Part shown: positions 11,846-22,034 of the stretch, in pieces
Numbering within the stretch: position 1 is the first letter of the stretch
How the letters are laid out: every line of letters begins with the position of its first letter
NCBI GenBank assembly: GCA_038204335.1
Contig: JBBRDA010000001.1
Location: 12,468 to 76,467 of the forward strand
Source: Burkholderiales bacterium
Lineage (GTDB): Bacteria > Pseudomonadota > Gammaproteobacteria > Burkholderiales > Burkholderiaceae_C
Direction: 5' to 3'
DNA length: 64,000 nucleotides
Notes under the pieces: model-generated
Told to the model about the DNA's origin: nothing
The model's database searches: none
Seen by the model: the letters and a program-made list of their open reading frames with translations, nothing else
Made by a program: the position numbers and the translations under genes

Positions 11846-13071
11846 GCCCGGCGGGGCATGCGCCAGGGCAACATCAGTTGCACCGCGCGGCTTCTCAAGC
11901 GCTGGGGCTCTAGCGTCTCGTGCATAGCAGTCACTGGCTCACCCAGCAAATGGGTTTGTAGCAAGCTACGGGCGTAAAACGGGGTGTCTTCCAGCGTGTC
12001 TACCACTTGGCTTGGGCTGGCAGAGTCCGCGCGAATACCCCGGTTAACCCGCCACAGAGTGCTGGGCAGCGCTTGGCGTTGAGGTGCGGCTTGAAACGAC
12101 TCCGATGAGCCGTCGGGTTTGAAACGCTCGGCCAGCAGCGTGCTTGAACCGTTGGTTTGCGTCACGTCGTAAATCACGGCGGTGCTCCCGTCTGCCATGC
12201 GCGCGCGTGACCAGTCCCAGGTTTTAAAGGGCACGGTGACCGGCTCGTCACCCTCGTTGCTGTCAAGGTACGCGTTGCCTTGCCAGCGCAGGCCGGGTTT
12301 GGCCAAATCGACCTCTACCCGGGCGCACGGGGCAATCGGCCCCCAACGATGTTTGCCTGCATCGTCAAGTGCGTTTGAGTAGTTGCACAACGCCTCGGCG
12401 TAGACGCGCACCGTACCGCGAACGCGTTGCGGGATGGGTACGCTGATTTCATTCAGTTCAATCTGCAAATGGTCGCCCCGCCACTGCAATTGGCTGGGGC
12501 CTATACGCAGATGCTCAGCATCGCGCTGCACGCTGCTTTGCCCGCGTTCGGTCATGGTCCAGCGGCGGCTGCCCGGCCCGTACAGTGCGACGTTGATGGC
12601 GCAGTGGTTTTCAGCTTTTACTGAAGCACCCTGCTTCGTAAAGGCGCTAGCGTAGTACGGTGAAAAAACGCTGCCAACAAAGGCGATGATGCTCAGGGCG
12701 TACTGGCCGTCGTCACTGATGGCGTCAACATACCACCAGAGATACGCACCCGGCCCAACGGCTTGGTTGAAGCCAGGTGTGCCATCACGGTGGCGGCCGC
12801 CAGTTGGCCCGACAGCGCCGCCATCGGAACGCCCGGCCCCGGGTGAACGCTGCCCCCCGCCAGGTAGAGCCCCGGCAGTTTGCTGGCTGAGCTCGGCCTT
12901 TGAAACGGCGTCATCCAACCGTGCGATGCCGGGCCGTACAACGCTCCGCCCGTCCCCGGAAACAGCTGGTTGAAGTCCGCCGGCGTGGTGACCACTGACT
13001 GGGCGGTAGCCGTTGTCAAATCCAGCGCCAGGCCACATTGGCCCAGCAGCTTGAGGCTTTGTTCCTGACAT
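11833..13071 (-). CDS. crtC: Carotenoid 1,2-hydratase (hydroxyneurosporene synthase) CrtC; start uncertain (ATG 13071, ATG 13038 or TTG 12918)
   Basis: CrtC hallmark YLWWYVDAISDDGQYALSIIAFVGSVFSPYY. GGAG SD 8 nt before ATG 13071. The 5' part overlaps crtD out of frame. Confidence 0.8.
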   Translation of the reverse strand: MSGTKPQAAGPMWPGAGFDNGYRPVSGHHAGGLQPAVSGDGRSVVRPGIARLDDAVSKAELSQQTAGALPGGGQRSPGAGRSDGGAVGPTGGRHRDGTPGFNQAVGPGAYLWWYVDAISDDGQYALSIIAFVGSVFSPYYASAFTKQGASVKAENHCAINVALYGPGSRRWTMTERGQSSVQRDAEHLRIGPSQLQWRGDHLQIELNEISVPIPQRVRGTVRVYAEALCNYSNALDDAGKHRWGPIAPCARVEVDLAKPGLRWQGNAYLDSNEGDEPVTVPFKTWDWSRARMADGSTAVIYDVTQTNGSSTLLAERFKPDGSSESFQAAPQRQALPSTLWRVNRGIRADSASPSQVVDTLEDTPFYARSLLQTHLLGEPVTAMHETLEPQRLRSRAVQLMLPWRMPRRAWGV

Positions 13072-14294
13072 GATTGGATCTCCGAAACAGTTAAATATTG
13101 ATCTGCGCCTTGGTCTCCCACCGCAGGTGCGTTAACCAGGCACAACAAGCGTTCATTGCCACCCAGGTCTTGCGCGTTATCGGTACGGTCTTGCGCACAA
13201 ACGTAGACCGTACCCCGAGTGGGTAACTTGTGCCGCTTAAAAATCTCATCAAACTCAAGCTTGTAGTCGTCGTCAAAAAACACGTTATGTCGGACGAGCG
13301 GAAAACCTGATGTTTTGGTGTTGACTGACCAGGTGATAGCTGACAGTGAGCGCTTGGACAAAGGCGTATTTTTTGCTGCGTGTTGAGCGTCATCACCTAA
13401 CAAGCCTTGCGCTAGCGCACTGGCATCGCCATTGAAAATAACCGCATCGGCTTGAAGTTGCTCGCCACCTTCCAGCTCGACACCGCAGGCGCGGCCACCC
13501 TTTACCAAAATGCGTTTGCATGGGGATGCGTAGCGCAGCGTTGCGCCCTGACGCTCCGCCTGCGACGCAATCGCCTTGGCCAGCGCGTGCATGCCACCAT
13601 CCACGGACCACACCCCGTCAAGCTCAACATGCGCCACCAGCATCAGCGTGGCAGGTGCATCCCAGGGCGATGCGCCGCAATAGGTCGCGTATCGGCCAAA
13701 CAACTGGAGCAGACGTGGATCATGAAAGTAGTGGCCCAGGGACTGCCAGAGCGACGCAAACGGCCCCAAGCTGGCCAGTGCAGCCAAACCGCTAGCGCCC
13801 AAGTCGGAGCCCATGCCGGCAAGGCTAGGCCGCGACGAGCGAATGTACGGACCTTCAAGGTGGTTGTAAATATCTCTGGCTTTTTGACAAAAAGCTCGAA
13901 ACCTCTTGGCTTCATCCGGCGAGCTGAACTGGGCAATCGCATCTGCTGAGCGGGACACGTCAGTGAACAAGTCCAAACGCTGGTCAGTGCTGCGCCACGC
14001 ATGGCGGCACAAAATGTCCAGGGGTTCAAGCTTGACCACATCGGCCAAGTTACAACCTACTTGGGCAAAAATCTGTTCAAAGACCCAGCGCATGGTGAAA
14101 ACCGTGGGGCCTGAATCGACCAACGCGCCACCCACATTGATCTGCCGCATTTTGCCGCCGGGTGTGGCCGCTTTTTCAACCAGGGTCACGCGCACACCGC
14201 TGTGCGCGAGCAGTAGCGCACTGACCAGGCCGCCCACTCCTGCACCCACGACGACGACGTGTTTGGTTTTGAGCATAGCCGCGTTAGTCATCAA
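12693..14294 (-). CDS. crtD: Hydroxyneurosporene/methoxyneurosporene 3,4-desaturase CrtD
   Basis: CrtI-family FAD fold VVVGAGVGGLVSALLLA, C-terminal GGSVHPGPGVPMAALSG and a conserved-looking tail. ATGA overlap with the crtA stop. Confidence 0.85.
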   Translation of the reverse strand: MMTNAAMLKTKHVVVVGAGVGGLVSALLLAHSGVRVTLVEKAATPGGKMRQINVGGALVDSGPTVFTMRWVFEQIFAQVGCNLADVVKLEPLDILCRHAWRSTDQRLDLFTDVSRSADAIAQFSSPDEAKRFRAFCQKARDIYNHLEGPYIRSSRPSLAGMGSDLGASGLAALASLGPFASLWQSLGHYFHDPRLLQLFGRYATYCGASPWDAPATLMLVAHVELDGVWSVDGGMHALAKAIASQAERQGATLRYASPCKRILVKGGRACGVELEGGEQLQADAVIFNGDASALAQGLLGDDAQHAAKNTPLSKRSLSAITWSVNTKTSGFPLVRHNVFFDDDYKLEFDEIFKRHKLPTRGTVYVCAQDRTDNAQDLGGNERLLCLVNAPAVGDQGADQYLTVSEIQSCQEQSLKLLGQCGLALDLTTATAQSVVTTPADFNQLFPGTGGALYGPASHGWMTPFQRPSSASKLPGLYLAGGSVHPGPGVPMAALSGQLAAATVMAHLASTKPLGRVRISGGMLTPSVTTASTP

Positions 14295-15028
14295 CCGTAG
14301 TGCTGGCCACGCCAGCTGCCGCTTAAGCTCAGAGGCACAAAACGGGCAAACATAGACTCAGAAAAAAACCCGCCGGCATGGGCTGCCTGTATAGCCGCCA
14401 AATGTGCACCGGTGCGAGCGTAGGCGTTCATCGCGTCAACGCCCGACCACAAACTGAAAGTCGCTTGACGGAAAAACGGCGCCTCGCCAACGCCCGTGGC
14501 CAGCAGGCAACCGCTGGCTTGGTTGAGCGACACCTCGCTGGCCGGCTGCATATGCCAAAAACGCTTGGCCGATAGCGGCTTGATTGAAGCGCGGGTGAGG
14601 GTAGCAATCGGTCCGCTAACAGGAGTAGCTGCGGTCACGTCGATCGAGCGCCCGTCCCACGACCCTTTGCACGAATAGGCGCGAAGCTTGGCGGTACAGA
14701 ATTCGCGCGACCGGCTTGAATATGAGCGGGCGATGGGAGATCCCAAAAACATGTCTGCTGCCGCTTCATCAACAAACAGACAAAACAGCGCTTGGCGCGA
14801 GCCGCTAGGCCGCAAGCCAAAACCACCATCAAAACCGCTGCCCATGACTTTAGAAAATACCAAGCCACTCACGCTACCCATAAAAAAGCGCTGAATCACA
14901 AAGCGCGCATAGCCCCACAGGCGGTACGCAGGGTCAATATCAGCCAGCAAAAAAACAGCCACCTGACCGGTTGCGCTTTGCGGCGCAACGGGCGAGGTGG
15001 CTGATTGAAAAGATGGAGTGTGCGGCAT
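14291..15028 (-). CDS. crtA: Spheroidene monooxygenase CrtA
   Basis: 245 aa. Pattern LTRASIKP...FW...GVGEAPFFRQATFSLW...FSESMFARF resembles CrtA of Rhodobacter and Rubrivivax. Located beside crtD. Confidence 0.75.
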   Translation of the reverse strand: MPHTPSFQSATSPVAPQSATGQVAVFLLADIDPAYRLWGYARFVIQRFFMGSVSGLVFSKVMGSGFDGGFGLRPSGSRQALFCLFVDEAAADMFLGSPIARSYSSRSREFCTAKLRAYSCKGSWDGRSIDVTAATPVSGPIATLTRASIKPLSAKRFWHMQPASEVSLNQASGCLLATGVGEAPFFRQATFSLWSGVDAMNAYARTGAHLAAIQAAHAGGFFSESMFARFVPLSLSGSWRGQHYG

Positions 15029-15104: not shown

Positions 15105-16304
15105 CTACTTGCGCAGCACCTCGACTTTGTTGGCAGATACCAGCGCTACCGCTTTACCGTCAGACTTACTTTCTGCTTTGACTTCAGGCTTGGCGGGTAT
15201 TGCGGGTACGTCTGCTGTTGGCACAGCTGGCGCAGCAGCAGGTGCGGCTGGATCAGCTGGTTTTGCAGACGGATACATCGCAGGGTAATGTTTGGCCATA
15301 GCCGCACCATACAGTGGCTTGTAAGCGCCTTGGTGACAAGTTGCGCAGTTGGCCTTGGCGACGTCACCGGTTGGGCCAAGTCGATTGGCTGGGAAAACAT
15401 TTGTAATCGGCACCATGTACTCGTTGTTCAACTCACGCGCCATGCGAATGCCATACCATGCAACCGCGCGTTGTGGTGTGGCGTTGGCGCCCCACTCGGC
15501 AAACGCCTGCGTGTTGTGGCAATACGTACAGTTCACGCCAAGCGCCGTCGACCAATGCATCATGGTGGCATAGGTGTGCTCAGTTTGCTTGATGGAATTG
15601 CGATTGGCAGCTGTACCCGTCATCGCCAGCGCTTCTTTGCCATTGACCCGAATGGGTTTATTGTCAAGGAAATACGGTGTGAACGGATCGTAAGGCAGAG
15701 AGCTCAGTCCCGTACTTTTCGCCGCCCGATTTTGACCTGCATCGTTGCCCAAATTACCGCCTGCCGACTTCTGGGCAGCAGGTGCAAACCATACTTCTTT
15801 GGGAATGTTGTTTCCCCGGTGGCAGGTGTAGCAGGTGACGCCGGTTTCAGCCACGTGTTGCTTCCAACCCGAGTTGACCTTTTGGGTCATTTGCAGCATT
15901 TTGCGCGCAACGATTTTGGTGTACACGCTGTCGTCTGCAAAGTTACCCGCGACGTGGCAGTAGTTGCAACCCTGCTGCGGTGCTACCCACTCGGTGATAG
16001 CGCTCATGGTGCGTGCGAACTCGCCCACACTCAGGTCACCCAACACTTTGACGTTTTGGTAAATAGCTCCGGCTCGGGGCGTCCCAGGTACATCGACGAT
16101 GGCGTCTGCCGGTGTCGGCGCTTTGTTAACCGCCGCTTGGGTGGCCAAAATACGCGGGTTATAAACCTGCTCCATGGCCGTGCCGCGAAAGCCTGTCTGT
16201 GACACTGCTATCGGTGGACGTTCACAGCCCGCTATCAGCAGTGCCGCAGTACTTGCCAGCAGTAGTTTAAGTGTGCTGCTTTTAAATGTTGTACTCGTCA
16301 TCAT
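15105..16304 (-). CDS. pufC: Reaction-centre tetrahaem cytochrome c subunit PufC (lipoprotein)
   Basis: Four CxxCH motifs (CNYCH, CYTCH, CTYCH, CATCH). Lipobox LLIAGC. ATGA overlap with the pufM stop. Confidence 0.9.
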
Positions 16305-17275
16305 GGTTTTACTCCCAGCAAAGCAGGATCAATAGTCGGCACCCAGACCGCCGGGTAGCTTGGTACCACATGGTGTTTAACTGACCACAGATACCAGTTG
16401 TCAACCACCGTGCCGGTCAGCAAGATACCGATACCGCCCACCAACGGGCAAAGTACCGCAAACCACCACGCCCAGCGGTGAATGGACTCCATCGACGCAT
16501 TGAAACCCATGGTCCAGCGCCAGAAAAGACCAGCTCTCTCAGATGCAGTACCGCGGTCAATGATCTGCTCAATCTCACGCTCGCCACCATATCGACCCAC
16601 TGCCAAAATTGTTGCACCGTGCATCGCAAAGAGCAACACAGAGCCATAAAGGAAAACAATCGACAGTGCATGGAACGGGTTGTAGAACAAGTTGCCATAT
16701 CGAAGGGACAAGGCGGCCGTCCAGTCGAGGTGCGGAAAGATGCCAAAGGGTACAGACTCTGCCCAGCTACCCATCAGTACCGGGCGGAAAAAACCAACCA
16801 CCAAGTACAACCAAATCGCCGCTGCAAAGGCCCATGCCACATGTGTACCCAATCCAAGCTGTCTTGCTCGACGGTACATTCGCGCCCACCACAAAATCAA
16901 TGAAATGGTCAGCATGAATCCAGCAATTTGCCACCAGCCACCGTCATTAAGTGGCGCAATACTCAAGCCATATTTGGGTGCTGGCGGCTCCAGCGCAAGC
17001 CAAAACAATTGACGAACCATCTGCATCGGATTCCAATCCACTTGGGCAAGCATATTAAAGCCCATGATGTTGAAAGCAAGCGTGCCAAACAGTAGCGATG
17101 CAAAGCCTAACCAACCCAGGTATATAGGACCAATCTGTGCATTGCCCAGCCGCCCGGCTAAGTGGACGAAAAAGGGCGTTCCGATACGCCCGGAATCCTC
17201 GGCGGGCAAGGGGACACCAGCCGATGCGGGTCCTGTGGGTTGTACGGTCGTGAAAAGATTTTGATATTCAGCCAT
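16301..17275 (-). CDS. pufM: Reaction centre M subunit
   Basis: 324 aa with typical PufM N-terminus [11 protein letters not shown] and five TM helices. Confidence 0.95.
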
Positions 17276-17297: not shown

Positions 17298-18125
17298 TTA
17301 ATGGCCCCAAATCGGCATGTTGAGCCACCAGCCCCACCATTCGGGCCAACCACGTGTCCAGAAAGGTCCACTAATGACGATGCAAAGCGCAGAAAACCAA
17401 ACCGCAGCCAATGCGAGGAATAGGCCCAAACGGTGGATGCCCAATGTACCCACTGAGTAGCCAATCACATCTCGGAAGAAAGTGTCTTCATGCTCAGGCG
17501 ATTTAACAGCCTGTCCCTTGCCTGGATTCGTGGCTGATAAAACCAGCGCGCCGTGCAGTGACAACGAGAGGGTTGTTGCGAAAAACAGAGTGACAGCAAT
17601 CATGTGCGCTGGGTTGTAGTGAAAATGCAAGTATTGGTAGCCAGTGTTGCTAACCCAGTCTAGGTGGCTATAAATGCCGTAGGGGAACGCATGTCCCCAA
17701 GAACCCATCAACACCGGACGAATTACTTGCAGGGTGAAGTAGGCAAAGATAGCAAATCCAAATGCAACTGGGACATGCAAGCCCATTCCCAATTTGCGAC
17801 AAATTTCAACCTCTCGGAGGGCCCACGAGACAAACGCTCCTAGTGCGCAAACCGTGATGACTTGCCACAAGCCGCCGGACATCATCGGCGCCATGCCCAA
17901 GCCGTTCGAAATGTCGGGTGGTGCGATATTGATTTGCCAAGGATTCCACGTTGGACCCATAGCTGCGCCCCACATGATCATGGCGGTGCCCACCAGAGCA
18001 AAAAACACTGTTGTTATTCCAAAGAAACCAACGTAAAACGGGCCGACCCAAAAGTCGAACAAGTCACCCCCAATCAGGGTGCCGCCGCGAATACGGTACT
18101 TTCTTTCAAAACTCAGCATGGCCAT
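17298..18125 (-). CDS. pufL: Reaction centre L subunit
   Basis: 275 aa with typical PufL N-terminus [35 protein letters not shown]. Confidence 0.95.
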
Positions 18126-18193
18126 AATGGCTCCTCGAATCCGGTACGCGTGGCTAGACGCTCTCGGAAATAATTTGTTGTTCTAAGAGGTGT

Positions 18194-18223
18194 GCGAAAC
18201 AGGCTGCATCAGCCTGATTTCGC
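18194..18223 (-). promoter_or_regulatory. Intercistronic stem-loop in the pufA-pufL spacer
   Basis: GCGAAACAGGCTG / CAGCCTGATTTCGC inverted repeat (13 bp stem, one bulge). Confidence 0.5.
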
Positions 18224-18245
18224 TCACCGCATCGACGGCAAAAGA

Positions 18246-18268
18246 GCCGCCTTTATTTTGAAGGCGGC
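18246..18268 (-). promoter_or_regulatory. Stem-loop spanning the pufA stop codon
   Basis: GCCGCCTT / AAGGCGGC 8-bp inverted repeat with a 7-nt loop. Confidence 0.45.
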
Positions 18269-18444
18269 ATGGCTGCATTCTGAGCAGCCTTGGCAGCCTT
18301 CACCGTGTCTGGATGCCACGTGTTGAGGTTGTAACGATCGGTACTAAGTTGAACCAGATGGATTGAAGTGCTCGTAAAAGCAATGATCAAACCTGTGAAG
18401 ATGATCGCCTTGCGGGGATCAACAATACGCCACATACGCCACAT
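18253..18444 (-). CDS. pufA: LH1 alpha polypeptide
   Basis: MWRMWRIVDPRKA...SIHLVQLSTDRYN matches the alpha-antenna pattern (WxxFDPR..., IHxxxLST). AGGA SD upstream. Confidence 0.9.
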   Translation of the reverse strand: MWRMWRIVDPRKAIIFTGLIIAFTSTSIHLVQLSTDRYNLNTWHPDTVKAAKAAQNAAMPPSK

Positions 18445-18458
18445 AATATTTCCTTTGG

Positions 18459-18683
18459 TTAGTTGAGTTGAGAGATCACGGTGTAGACAGCAGACTTCAC
18501 GCTCTCATACATCGGTCGCGTCCCTTCTGCCCCTGGCAGCCAAGTACGCCAATCCATGAACATCATCTGGCCCATCATCGCAAGCGACAAAAAGACACAG
18601 AAGAGAACAACGTACAGGTATCGAAACTCCTTGATGGGAGCATCTAAAACACTGTCGGACTGTTGAGCATGTGAATAAGTCAT
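18459..18683 (-). CDS. LH1-beta-like 74-aa single-TM polypeptide lacking both conserved histidines
   Basis: Aligns without gaps to PufB (KEFR vs QEFH; GQMMFMDWRTW vs [11 protein letters not shown]). GGAG SD 6 nt before ATG 18683. The ORF-track 101-aa version overlaps pufB and was trimmed. Confidence 0.65.
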   Translation of the reverse strand: MTYSHAQQSDSVLDAPIKEFRYLYVVLFCVFLSLAMMGQMMFMDWRTWLPGAEGTRPMYESVKSAVYTVISQLN

Positions 18684-18705
18684 ATTTATCTCCGTGAGTT
18701 GGTTC

Positions 18706-18855
18706 TTAGAACCAGGGACGCCAGACCCACACCAAGCTGTGCGCAAGCAATGCACCAGCAGCAAACATCAGGTAGCCCTGGATGTAGTACTTGTGGAATT
18801 CTTGGCACTCTTGATCAGACAATCCCGAAGGAGTTGCGCTTTGATTCATAGTCAT
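18706..18855 (-). CDS. pufB: LH1 beta polypeptide (49 aa, below the ORF-track cutoff)
   Basis: Manual translation gives [57 protein letters not shown] directly upstream. Confidence 0.9.
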
Positions 18856-18994
18856 TTCCTCACTTAAAAGGCCTTACGGCCACTACCTTGCCCGAAAGCA
18901 AGGAACGAATTGCCACACCGCGAGCGTTTTGGCAAATTTGCGACCAGAAAAATCTGGGCGCTTGTACTGGCAATCAAAATCACAGCGGTGCAGG
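18856..18994 (-). promoter_or_regulatory. bchZ-pufB spacer / puf leader rich in hairpins
   Basis: On the - strand: CCAGATTTTTCTGG, TTGCCA-N14-TGGCAA, CCTTGC-TTTCGG-GCAAGG and GGCC-GTAA-GGCC. Confidence 0.4.
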
Positions 18995-20473
18995 TCATGC
19001 GGCCGCTCCTACTTTTGAATACCCGAACAATTCTGTGAGGCTGTGGAGCTCAACCACCGTGCGACCGGCCTGGCGAGCCTCGCGTTCGGCACGGTCACGC
19101 ATTTGTTTGGCTGCTGAAATGCGAACCAACACAGGTTCCGCCTCAATCAGCTCTTCAAGCAACGCGTGCGCTTCAGGCGTCCACGAAATCGGCTTGTCGG
19201 CGTTGATGCGGCCAGGTGTTGAGTCAATCTTGTCGAGCTCGGTACCCAGCGGCAAAATATGAAATAGGGCGTCAAACAACGCGTTACAAAACTCTTGAAT
19301 AAGGTATGTGGCTCCGGCATAACCCATGAATGGCGTGCCGGTGTGACGACGAATAATGGGTAGCGGAAATGACGCGGGGATAAACGTCGTCTTCATCATT
19401 CCGCCGCCGCCGCACTCGGCCAGATACATTCGTTCGTTGTAACTGCCGTACATCACCAGTGGCGTTTTAGTGGCGGTCAAGCGACGCACCTCTGCGTTAT
19501 CGGTTTTGGCACCGGGGCAACGCGCAATAGCAAAGTTGCAGGGTAGGCCCATTTCAACTTCAAGAAAATGTCGAATACCTCGCGTGTAGGTTTCGTTAGC
19601 AACCACTGCAAAACTGGCGGTGCCGAAAAAGTCTTGGGTGACCGAACGCCACAAGTCCCAAATCGGCTTGATGGTGGTGTGCTTTTCTCGTTCAATAAAA
19701 GGCTCAGGGTCAAGACCCAGCAAGTCACCTAACTTCCGCAGGAATTTGGTTGTGCTGTGCAGCCCAATCGGCGCTTGAAGATATGGACGCTCAAGCGCTT
19801 CACACAGCATGCGGCCGAACTCGCGGTACATGCAAATATTCACATCAGCTTCAACGAGGCGCGATACGTCGGCCAAGTGGCTGCCGAGCGGGAACACCAT
19901 GTTGATTTCCGCGCCAATACCTTGTACCAAGCGGCGGATTTCAGCCAGATCGCTGGGGCTATTGAACGTACCGTAGCTGGGGCCAATGATGTTCACTCTG
20001 GGCTTTTCACCAGGCGCACGTTCGGCTGCTGGTTTGCGGGCCGGCACGTGCTTAAGACCATACTCAGACCACAGCCAGAACATCGCGCGGTTCGCGCACT
20101 GCCACTGGTCTTCGTCAATCGTGCGGGGCAAAAAGCGCTGAATGTTGGTACCTGCGGGTGTCACGCCGCCACCAATCATTTCTGCAATAGAACCTGTGAC
20201 CACCACCGAAGGCAAATCTGGATCCAATGCGGCATGCGCACGGCGCATTGAACCCTCGGTGCCTTCCCGGCCCAATTGCTCTTCCGCCAAGCCCGTCACC
20301 ACAATCGGTAATTCATGGGGCGGCAGCGCATCGGTGTAATGCAACACGGACGTGACAGGCAAATTCTCACAACCCACCGGGCCGTCAATTACCACCTGTA
20401 AGCCTTTGATGGCGGTGAAAACATACACCGCTCCCCAATAGCCGCCTGCACGATCGTGATCTAGAACTAGCAT
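18995..20473 (-). CDS. bchZ: Chlorophyllide a reductase subunit Z
   Basis: 492 aa with N-terminus [39 protein letters not shown] typical of BchZ. Confidence 0.9.
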
Positions 20474-20474
20474 G

Positions 20475-22034
20475 TCAGATCATTTCCTCGGCTTTACGCT
20501 TTTTGGCCATCTTCACGGCCAATCTGCGTTGCTCGGCCTTGAATTCAGGACGGTCTTGTGGAATGCCTTGTGCGGCTTCCCAAACGCCAGTCGAATGACC
20601 TGTGCCGACCGAGCCAAAGAATTCTTTCATCTCATCAAAGCGGGCTTTGTTGGCAATTGCCGCGTTGACAACGGTTGCCAAAGAGCCAGCTCCGGCTGGG
20701 CCCATCAAAGGACGCGCTGAAATGAGGTTTGTGAAATACAGCGACGGGATCGTCAACTCTTTAGCGGCTTGCACGACCGGCGTGGTGCCAATAGCCAGAT
20801 CGGGCTTGAACTCATGCACAGCCGCGAGGTCTTGCTCCAGCGACGCGCGGAACTGCACCATCACGCCCTTACTTTCAAGCCACTGGACATCCGCCTCGTT
20901 CCACGCTGTACGGGGGCAAGCGCTTCCCACATAGCGAAGGTCAGCGCCGCTTTCAACCAGCAGGCGGCCGACGAGCAATTCAGAGCCTTCATAGCCACTC
21001 AGTGTGATGCGGCCTTTGATCGGCGTTTTGCCAAGCACCGCTTTAATGGCGGGAAGAAACTTGTTTTTAGCAGCATCAATATCGCTCTGCGCAATATTGG
21101 TCGCTTGGCCAATGGCTTGCAACCATGCTTCAGTGCCGTCATAGCCCACAGGTGCAGAACCCACGACGGCACGGCCAGCGGCGTCGAACTCGCGAACGCT
21201 GGCTGTATAAAACGGATGAATCGCAGCCACCGCAGCGCAATCAAGCGCGGCATACAACTCACGCCACTCTCTCGTAGGTACGCTCGGCCCTGCAGCCAGG
21301 CCCATAGGCTCCAGCATCATGCCGATGATGACGGGGTCAGCCGGGAACATCTCTCCGAGCAAGGTGATAGTGGGCTTGTCAGATTTCCCGTTGCGCGGCG
21401 CTTGCACGGGACCTGCCAACGCTTCGGTACGTGCGTATTTCAGCATCGCTCCAGCCAAAACGTCTTTCGCCTCAGCATGGGTGGGCACACCAAAACCAGG
21501 CACATCGATACCAATGATGCGTACGCCGTTGATTTCTTTCGGCAAAATTTGCAGCGGCACGCCACTGGCCGTAGGCACACACAAATTAATGATGACGATA
21601 GCGTCATACAGGGCCGGGTCAGCTTGTTGAAAGACGGCTTCGCGAATGTCCTCAAAGAGCTTGCCCGTCACCAAGGACTCTGAGTTAAACGGAACATAGC
21701 CGACGCTGCGTTTGGCACCGTAAAAGTGCGAGGTAAACGTCAGACCGTAAACGCAGCAGGCTGAGCCCGACAAAATTGTGGCGGTGCGGCGCATGCGCAG
21801 GCCGACGCGTAGCGAACCGAATGCAGGGCACATGCTTTGCGGCTGATCGTGCGGTCCGGCTTTGGGGTTCTTGGGGTAGTCCTTGGCGTACTGGTCAAGA
21901 ATCTCTGACTTGCCAGCAGACTTAGCCGCAGCCAACATGGCATCACCGCCGCTATGGCAGCCCATACCGTCACCTTCGAGCGCCGTCGAAATCGGCGCTT
22001 TTGGCATCGGGATGATTGGGATAACAGCGTTCAT
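20475..22034 (-). CDS. bchY: Chlorophyllide a reductase subunit Y
   Basis: 519 aa NifD/BchN-like protein. Position between bchX and bchZ. Confidence 0.9.

Follow-up and report, generated by a model that had tools for sequence, protein, structure and literature searches.

A histidine-less relative of long-tailed light-harvesting 1 beta chains encoded between pufB and pufA in Burkholderiales

We analyzed a 64,000-nucleotide stretch of DNA from a Burkholderiales bacterium (GenBank assembly GCA_038204335.1, contig JBBRDA010000001.1, positions 12,468 to 76,467; hereafter, the window) that carries a puf operon with a third small gene between pufB and pufA, the genes for the beta and alpha chains of light-harvesting complex 1 (LH1). 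This gene, denoted X here, encodes a protein of 74 amino acids (aa) that resembles LH1 beta chains and lacks both of their conserved histidines. X is a real gene under selection and belongs to a large family in Burkholderiales; judging from profile comparisons, it is an old derivative of a long-tailed LH1 beta chain. The conservation pattern suggests a tetrapyrrole pocket in which glutamine takes the place of the ligand histidine, and X might be a pigment-holding accessory polypeptide of the core antenna. The features on which the analysis centers are as follows.

18459-18683, minus strand: open reading frame (ORF) X, 74-aa histidine-less LH1-beta-like protein; ATG at 18683-18681, TAA at 18461-18459
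18690-18693, minus strand: GGAG Shine-Dalgarno (SD) sequence of X, 6 nucleotides (nt) before the X ATG
18706-18855, minus strand: pufB, canonical short LH1 beta chain, 49 aa, with both histidines (Pfam LHC 7.8e-10, NCBIfam pufB 3.6e-18)
18253-18444, minus strand: pufA, LH1 alpha chain, 63 aa (Pfam LHC and NCBIfam pufA)

The original prediction described a histidine-less beta paralogue in this position, and its coordinates, the translation, the GGAG motif and the gaps of 22 nt after the pufB stop codon and 14 nt before the pufA ATG all match the minus-strand sequence and the ORF list. The program-made list gives X as a 101-aa ORF with a TTG start; the ATG-started 74-aa form is the one kept in homologues. 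The gap-free alignment with the neighboring PufB was recovered by BLASTP (49 residues, 22% identity, E = 7e-6 in a single comparison), and in this alignment both conserved histidines are replaced (H21 by R21 and H39 by Q39), whereas R46 is kept and the 18-residue spacing is intact.

The gene also turned out to be conserved and subject to purifying selection in related phototrophic Burkholderiales, which is where the original prediction had proposed to look. A search of 5.8 billion proteins yielded 144 protein clusters with 58-91% identity to X, nearly all of exactly 74 aa; 133 X-profile representatives were retrieved when 1.84 billion representatives at 50% identity were searched with a profile, and the wider X profile, obtained in a second, word-indexed search with distant members, comprises 939 clusters. 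In a scan of one genome per species, 80 loci were found, all in Burkholderiales metagenome-assembled genomes (MAGs). The closest of these belong to Polaromonas (91% identity in X, as high as 100% in PufA; the PufA of the window is 100% identical to that of the Polaromonas locus L022), and the other X-bearing loci come from Variovorax, Hylemonella, Rhodoferax, Limnohabitans and unclassified Comamonadaceae. The gene order pufB-X-pufA was detected by tblastn in all 80 loci, and 6 further loci with three distant members of the family all have the order bchX/Y/Z-pufB-X-pufA-pufLMC, which brings the total to 86 of 86. The gap between pufB and X spans 22-32 nt and that between X and pufA 10-16 nt across the loci; GGAG is found 5' of X in 58 of the 80 and another SD-like motif in 10 more (68 of 80 together). 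The ratio of nonsynonymous to synonymous substitution rates (dN/dS; pairwise Nei-Gojobori estimates over related loci) is higher for X (0.22) than for pufB (0.14) and pufA (0.10); the parts of X differ, with 0.31 over residues 1-22 against 0.15 in the helix and 0.13 in the tail. Over the same loci, the sequence identity is 43-91% for X, 63-92% for PufB and 67-100% for PufA. The codon composition of X, including the G+C content of third codon positions, shows no useful difference from that of pufB and pufA. Given the conserved clusters, the same slot, the low dN/dS, and the retained SD sequences and tight spacing, X is a genuine, selected gene. In a 132-aa NCBI protein (P0256), an LHC (PufB) domain and X are fused in one product, probably due to a mis-called start or a lost stop.

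No match to X was obtained at E<=10 in the Pfam and NCBIfam libraries, that is, X is below the detection limit of the LHC (PF00556) and pufB (NF040862) models; the neighboring PufB and PufA both pass. The top phmmer matches of X in the PDB are LH1 beta chains (E = 7e-8), and these are also retrieved with the X profile (E = 5.6e-18). The best matches are of a long type, namely, 8Z81 chains B and D, 7XXF chain B, which is the LH1 beta chain of Rhodopila globiformis (PMC9640540), 9M8M chain B, and 6Z5S; all of these possess the ligand His. The alignments extend past the W-R-P-W-(L/I)-P-G-A-E-G segment into the C-terminal tail, which ends in ATISQL in 7XXF_B and in TVISQL in X. With hhalign, X matches the long beta chains with a probability of 99% (E 4e-19 to 2.5e-21) and the family of the adjacent short PufB with a probability of 91% (E 1e-6). 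On the strength of these comparisons, X is an old derivative of a long-tailed LH1 beta chain; because the match to the long beta profile is far better than the match to the short PufB, it is not a recent copy of its neighbor, and we reject a recent tandem duplication of pufB. The characterization of X as a beta paralogue thus holds insofar as the protein is beta-derived, consists of a single helix and lacks both histidines, but not in the sense of a recent copy of the neighboring PufB. Likewise, the C-terminal extension relative to PufB that was initially pointed out is present (25 residues) but is not a novelty, since it corresponds to the ancestral tail of the long beta chains. The automatic label "LH1 beta chain" that is attached to the X family by the Joint Genome Institute (JGI) mirrors this similarity but, taken as a functional name, is wrong.

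Gln takes the position of the ligand His (Gln39 in the X of the window) almost throughout: among the clusters, in 117 of 119 close and 117 of 118 distant ones, and among the loci, in 79 of 80. The rare deviations include Arg in one Limnohabitans MAG (L078 3001-3153) and Thr in cluster P0069. In cluster P0107, the Gln is retained and the preceding Gly is changed to Ala. Counting from this position, A35 (-4), W45 (+6), R46 (+7) and W48 (+9) are invariant, and G38 (-1) and Q39 are at least 90% conserved; F28, G51, E53 and much of the tail SVKSAVYTVISQL also belong to the invariant or nearly invariant part of the family. In LH1 structures, the residues at -4, -1, +6, +7 and +9 make room for, and form hydrogen bonds with, the bacteriochlorophyll (BChl) of the beta chain, Trp+9 being the donor of the hydrogen bond to the C3-acetyl group; the side chain of Gln is able to ligate Mg. 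From the near-invariant Gln and the retention of all five of these residues, we infer that X retains a tetrapyrrole pocket. The position of the His in the EFH motif, in contrast, is occupied by Arg21 in the X of the window and by R, Q, F, Y or L across the family, and the N-terminal E-F-H region as a whole is not conserved in X, whereas the true beta chains of the same loci have a conserved N-terminal domain.

The AlphaFold2 (AF2) model of X, built from a 94-sequence alignment, consists of a transmembrane helix at residues 17-47 (predicted local distance difference test score of ~90 at residues 21-40) and, beyond a loop, a second helix at residues 61-73 that is predicted with low confidence. 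The W-x-x-W interface motif comes at the end of the first of these, the single transmembrane helix. The last 13 residues, which form this tail helix, are amphipathic as read directly from the sequence. By homology with the beta chains, the tail of X should be periplasmic; positive-inside counts do not discriminate between the topologies, even for true beta chains. A Foldseek search of the PDB with the AF2 model, a single helix with low overall confidence, produced zero matches.

The gene order described here has precedents, contrary to the initial impression that no pufB-X-pufA arrangement of this kind had been described. As summarized in a 2025 article on Gemmatimonadota antennae that refers to Nagashima 1994, the puf operon of Rubrivivax gelatinosus contains two extra ORFs of unknown function, one of which, ORF2, is located between pufB and pufA and lacks the BChl-binding His; that article compares ORF2 with the alpha-type PufA2 only (PMC12817894). 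In Roseateles depolymerans, a 2023 transcriptome study lists ORF74 (RD2015_RS05155), a "hypothetical protein" flanked by pufB (RS05150) and pufA (RS05160); pufA, pufB and ORF74 are the genes most induced by carbon starvation and most dependent on an RpoH-like sigma factor and, according to the account given there of Suyama 2002, are co-transcribed as the major 1-kb puf mRNA (PMC10037100). Judging from position, length, taxonomy and the presence of the family in every sampled Burkholderiales slot, X is probably the counterpart of ORF74 and ORF2. In the accessible literature on ORF2 and ORF74, we found no function, structure or statement of beta descent; what is new here is that the family stems from long beta chains, keeps a Gln pocket, is this large and this widely distributed among taxa, and is linked to the histidine-less proteins discussed below.

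The segment pufB-X-pufA of the window fits the 1-kb transcript known from R. depolymerans and is followed, after pufA, by a stem-loop of the stabilizing type.

18189-18228, minus strand: strong RNA hairpin in the pufA-pufL spacer (spacer -48 kcal/mol, z = -3.6, 0 of 200 shuffles as stable)

In other purple bacteria, such as Rhodobacter, stem-loops 3' of pufBA shape a stable, abundant pufBA message (PMC5725709), and by analogy, X is probably transcribed together with the LH1 apoprotein genes. Between pufB and pufA, no promoter-like site turned up on the coding strand in a promoter scan, and the terminator scan detected one terminator-like stem, which straddles the pufA stop codon; in both scans, the counts are near the shuffle expectation.

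A second family of histidine-less proteins came to light in a tblastn search of plasmids, which returned an ordinary long PufB of Methylobacterium aquaticum and a 74-aa "hypothetical protein" of Candidatus Thiodictyon syntrophicum (WP_100923003.1). The gene for the latter is located between bchZ and pufB, that is, in the pufQ slot (plasmid pTs485, L088 2953-3177), and a similar unannotated ORF occupies the pufQ slot of M. aquaticum (pMaq22A_1p, L087 3405-3761). The order bchZ-ORF-pufB-pufA-pufL was also found in Algihabitans albus (L094 3001-3285, hypothetical protein) and in four other genomes (L095-L098). In one of these, a metagenome contig, the called pufM product has just 184 aa, and an 82-aa ORF of opposite orientation precedes it (L095 4893-5722); pufM may be frameshifted or misassembled there. 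The pufQ-slot family comprises 251 clusters from Alpha- and Gammaproteobacteria that are annotated as hypothetical or not at all; there are no precomputed Pfam domains, PufQ included, among the 120 of these clusters that were listed. Its members usually have Arg at the ligand position and carry the tail motif EAKAAANT..PFAFM. In hhalign comparisons, this family matches X with a probability of ~99% (98.7-99.3%; E 3e-16 to 6e-21) and the long beta chains with ~99% (E 2e-22).

PufQ itself is a single-helix protein of ~74 aa with a conserved helix and C-terminus and a variable N-terminus; it is required for a normal BChl level, acts through ferrochelatase and is a proposed tetrapyrrole binder, the interaction with ferrochelatase being known for the Rhodobacter sphaeroides protein only (PMC5725709). 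Six Rhodobacteraceae PufQ sequences align in register with the enlarged pufQ-slot profile (probability 68-88%, E 3e-6 to 5e-5), which suggests a beta origin of PufQ. Compared directly with X, the same PufQ sequences score 9-58%, which is not significant, and X gives no match to Pfam PufQ (PF05398) at E<=10 (2.7e-34 for the control, Rhodobacter capsulatus PufQ). No PufQ-like sequence was found in the 64-kb window, where the pufQ slot contains a short ORF.

18864-18998, minus strand: ORF1, 44 codons, in the pufQ slot; its ATG overlaps the bchZ stop codon (ATGA)

The overlap between true pufQ genes and bchZ amounts to 4 nt (X, instead, lies between pufB and pufA), and the overlap of the ORF1 ATG with the bchZ stop has the geometry of pufQ and bchZ in Roseobacter plasmids. 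The dN/dS of ORF1 is 0.35-0.86, and its 44-codon form is present in some loci only, being missing or different in many. Thus, ORF1 is weakly constrained and inconsistently present, is rejected as a clear PufQ equivalent, and is probably not a conserved protein; the same observations leave room for conservation at this site that may be at the RNA level. The C-terminal GRKAF of ORF1 coincides with a GGCCGUAAGGCC-UUUU hairpin right before the SD sequence of pufB. ORF1 of the window may correspond to ORF1 of Rubrivivax gelatinosus.

What, then, might X do? The reading that we put forward, with a likelihood somewhat short of even, is that X is a pigment-holding accessory polypeptide docked on LH1 units, where it could be a subunit of a specific site or of a ring gap, or else provide an additional pigment site. 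X would be a third core-antenna polypeptide, translated from the stable pufB-X-pufA message alongside alpha and beta. No longer a normal beta chain, it would still hold a tetrapyrrole, with Gln39 standing in for the Mg-ligating His and with the BChl pocket residues Ala35, Gly38, Trp45, Arg46 and Trp48 kept; its cytoplasmic N-terminal domain, unlike that of the true beta chains here, would be free to vary. Specifically, X would bind one BChl or bacteriochlorophyllide via Gln39 and dock on LH1 alpha/beta through its helix and conserved tail; it would not repeat around the ring like a beta chain but be an accessory or gap-type subunit, and the association could be either permanent (structural) or transient (hand-over of pigment during assembly). 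The proposal is built on the replacement of His by Gln, the retained pocket residues and the freed N-terminal domain, and the first two of these favor a tetrapyrrole-binding role. It also draws on the evidence for a real gene of beta descent, on the location of X ahead of the hairpin and thus within the pufBA-type segment, on the co-transcription and strong induction of ORF74 in R. depolymerans, and on the absence of any other antenna-like gene from the window. Several observations weigh against it. There is no protein-level evidence for X in any organism, and no histidine-less relative exists in the solved structures of reaction centre (RC)-LH1 or other light-harvesting complexes, the profiles of X and of its sister family retrieving ordinary beta chains only from the PDB. 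The confident part of the AF2 model is limited to the helix, and among the 50%-identity representatives, the ligand position is also occupied by Ser, Ala, Thr, Gly and Leu. PufB and PufA of the same loci evolve more slowly than X, whose unconstrained N-terminal domain is unlike a tightly packed ring subunit. Finally, the sister family in the pufQ slot, with mostly Arg, which cannot be a Mg ligand, points to a non-pigment or regulatory role of the superfamily. The PDB copy that was searched apparently contains no RC-LH1 structure from an X-bearing organism, and none of the matches of X or its profile is a known accessory chain of the PufX, protein W or gamma type. Chain 4 of 8k5o, a single-copy 105-aa chain with an antenna domain, is a weak match to the X and pufQ-slot profiles (E 3e-5); as a possible precedent for a non-repeating beta-like subunit, this lead did not hold.

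Because X is akin to the pufQ-slot proteins, a role in assembly or regulation is still alive. X could be the Burkholderiales counterpart of PufQ, a biogenesis factor moved from the bchZ-pufB slot into pufBA and absent from the finished complex; in that case, it would tie apoprotein synthesis to the supply of BChl, whether as a holder of late BChl intermediates or through an effect on an enzyme of the tetrapyrrole branch, like that of PufQ on ferrochelatase. We give this only slightly less weight than the accessory polypeptide. It is in line with the homology of the X profile to the histidine-less pufQ-slot family of Methylobacterium, Thiodictyon and Algihabitans (E down to 6e-21), the suggestive in-register similarity of that family to Rhodobacteraceae PufQ (68-88%), and the size of PufQ (~74 aa), its one helix and the pattern of a conserved helix and C-terminus with a variable N-terminus that it shares with X; furthermore, the pufQ slot of the window is devoid of a strongly conserved protein and the 64 kb of a PufQ-like sequence, and both the faster evolution of X and the lack of histidine-less relatives in solved complexes speak for such a factor. 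Against it, X has no Pfam PufQ match, its direct profile comparison with PufQ is not significant, and none of the 120 listed pufQ-slot clusters has a Pfam domain. In addition, X is part of the most abundant, stabilized mRNA segment and has a good SD sequence, whereas pufQ of Rhodobacter is at the 5' end, outside the pufBA segment, and, judging from LH1 structures, the retained Trp+9 and the near-invariant Gln would suit a BChl site better than a regulator. Still another way to employ X would be as an alternative antenna partner that pairs with PufA, in the manner of PufA2 with the shared PufB in Gemmatimonas, to form a second, blue-shifted ring or an LH1' from puf genes alone. Extra rings that arise from one added puf gene have precedent (PMC8849296), Limnohabitans planktonicus is reported to possess unusual 799/813 nm bands (PMC12654162), and Limnohabitans MAGs are among the X-bearing loci. 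Nevertheless, this seems very unlikely to us, given that the N-terminal domain of X is unconstrained and that of true beta chains is conserved. The spectrum of R. depolymerans, which we take to be that of plain RC-LH1, also counts against it. That bacterium has the same-slot gene but no puc genes (PMC10037100), and the puc genes drawn inside the Limnohabitans photosynthesis gene cluster in a review could explain the extra bands (PMC12654162). The LH1' of Roseospirillum parvum, considered as a lead, has no bearing on X, and a reading of X as half of a light-harvesting complex 2 pair is rejected because no other antenna-like ORF, pucBA included, is present in the 64-kb window. That X is a functionless, decaying beta duplicate carried inside an essential operon might seem natural in view of the loss of both histidines, the lack of Pfam and NCBIfam matches, and the faster evolution than PufB and PufA; yet the frame and the 74-aa length are held down to 43% identity, many columns are invariant, the SD sequence is conserved, there are hundreds of clusters, and the dN/dS of 0.13-0.15 in the helix and tail contradicts decay, such that we regard this as improbable in the extreme.

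The pigment-holding accessory polypeptide can be placed in a broader and bolder context. X might be a third RC-LH1 polypeptide, stoichiometric or site-specific, in Burkholderiales phototrophs of freshwater and cold habitats (Polaromonas, Limnohabitans, Rhodoferax, Rubrivivax, Roseateles), with a Gln-held BChl or as a beta replacement that opens the ring, and, together with the pufQ-slot family and possibly PufQ, might represent a widespread, overlooked class of histidine-less descendants of beta chains. Taken as a whole, this extended scenario is rather unlikely.

The remaining puf genes and the adjacent genes of BChl biosynthesis in the window are arranged as follows.

17298-18125, minus strand: pufL, reaction-centre gene of the same operon, downstream of X
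16301-17275, minus strand: pufM, reaction-centre gene of the same operon
15105-16304, minus strand: pufC, reaction-centre gene of the same operon
18995-20473, minus strand: bchZ, directly upstream of the puf genes
20475-22034, minus strand: bchY, upstream of bchZ

The order pufLMC, with the Pfam domains Photo_RC and CytoC_RC, recurs in related loci, as does the bchY/bchZ context. In R. depolymerans, a small ORF, ORF77 (RD2015_RS05175), has been described between pufM and pufC; a gene of this type is absent from the window because pufM and pufC overlap by 4 nt (16301-16304). In some related Burkholderiales loci (L081 6358-7758, L083 6343-7716 and L084 4827-6200), PufC is 457-466 aa long and contains a C-terminal OmpA-family domain (PF00691); the PufC of the window, at 399 aa, is too short for such an extension. 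The segment 3' of pufC (12693-15028, minus strand) contains a 245-aa ORF (14291-15028) and a 533-aa ORF (12693-14294), the latter with an N-terminal FAD-binding motif. By the look of their sequences, these are putative carotenoid genes of the crtA type and the phytoene-desaturase type, respectively.

In a major group of aerobic anoxygenic phototrophs, which inhabit lakes, rivers and glacier-fed streams, the X gene belongs to the most strongly expressed puf segment, and it is likely to matter for the photosystems of these abundant freshwater organisms. It nevertheless has no name and no Pfam or NCBIfam model, and annotation pipelines call it "hypothetical" or, wrongly, "LH1 beta chain". The descent from long beta chains, the Gln-for-His pigment pocket and the kinship with the pufQ-slot proteins now provide handles on X and hint that the PufQ-type proteins, too, could have arisen from antenna chains; R. 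depolymerans and Rubrivivax gelatinosus are culturable, genetically tractable hosts of an X-type gene. If X is a subunit, the current models of the Burkholderiales RC-LH1 lack a component; as a biogenesis factor, it would close the apparent pufQ gap in Burkholderiales.

Among the known systems, the small transmembrane polypeptides PufX, protein W, protein-U/PufY, and the gamma and gamma-like polypeptides sit on the LH1 ring and stabilize it or gate quinone traffic (PMC9640540). A role of this kind could be open to X; however, none of these polypeptides derives from a beta chain or has its gene in the pufB-pufA interval, and the gamma-like peptide, with 22 residues, is oriented the opposite way. 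PufQ of Rhodobacter and Roseobacter resembles X in its length of ~74 aa, one helix, location in the puf operon, and conserved helix and C-terminus, but the two should differ in topology, the C-terminus of PufQ being predicted on the cytoplasmic side and the tail of X being expected on the periplasmic side. The members of the pufQ-slot family are, like X, histidine-less, beta-derived proteins of ~73-79 aa that are encoded in the puf operon and have the same kind of tail; they differ from X in being encoded upstream of pufB, in the usual Arg at the ligand position and in the tail motif, which is EAKAAANT..PFAFM and not SVKSAVYTVISQL, and they occur with both long and short PufB. The long beta chains (7XXF B; 8Z81 B and D; 9M8M B; 6Z5S of Rhodopseudomonas palustris) share with X the single transmembrane helix, the W-R-x-W-(L/I)-P-G motif, and a tail of ~25 residues with a similar ISQL end; unlike them, X has Gln in place of the ligand His, Arg or a variable residue in place of the EFH His, and a non-conserved N-terminal domain, and coexists with a normal short PufB. 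ORF74 and ORF2 resemble X in that they are found in Burkholderiales hosts in the same slot between pufB and pufA, ORF74 also having 74 aa and ORF2 also lacking the BChl-binding His.

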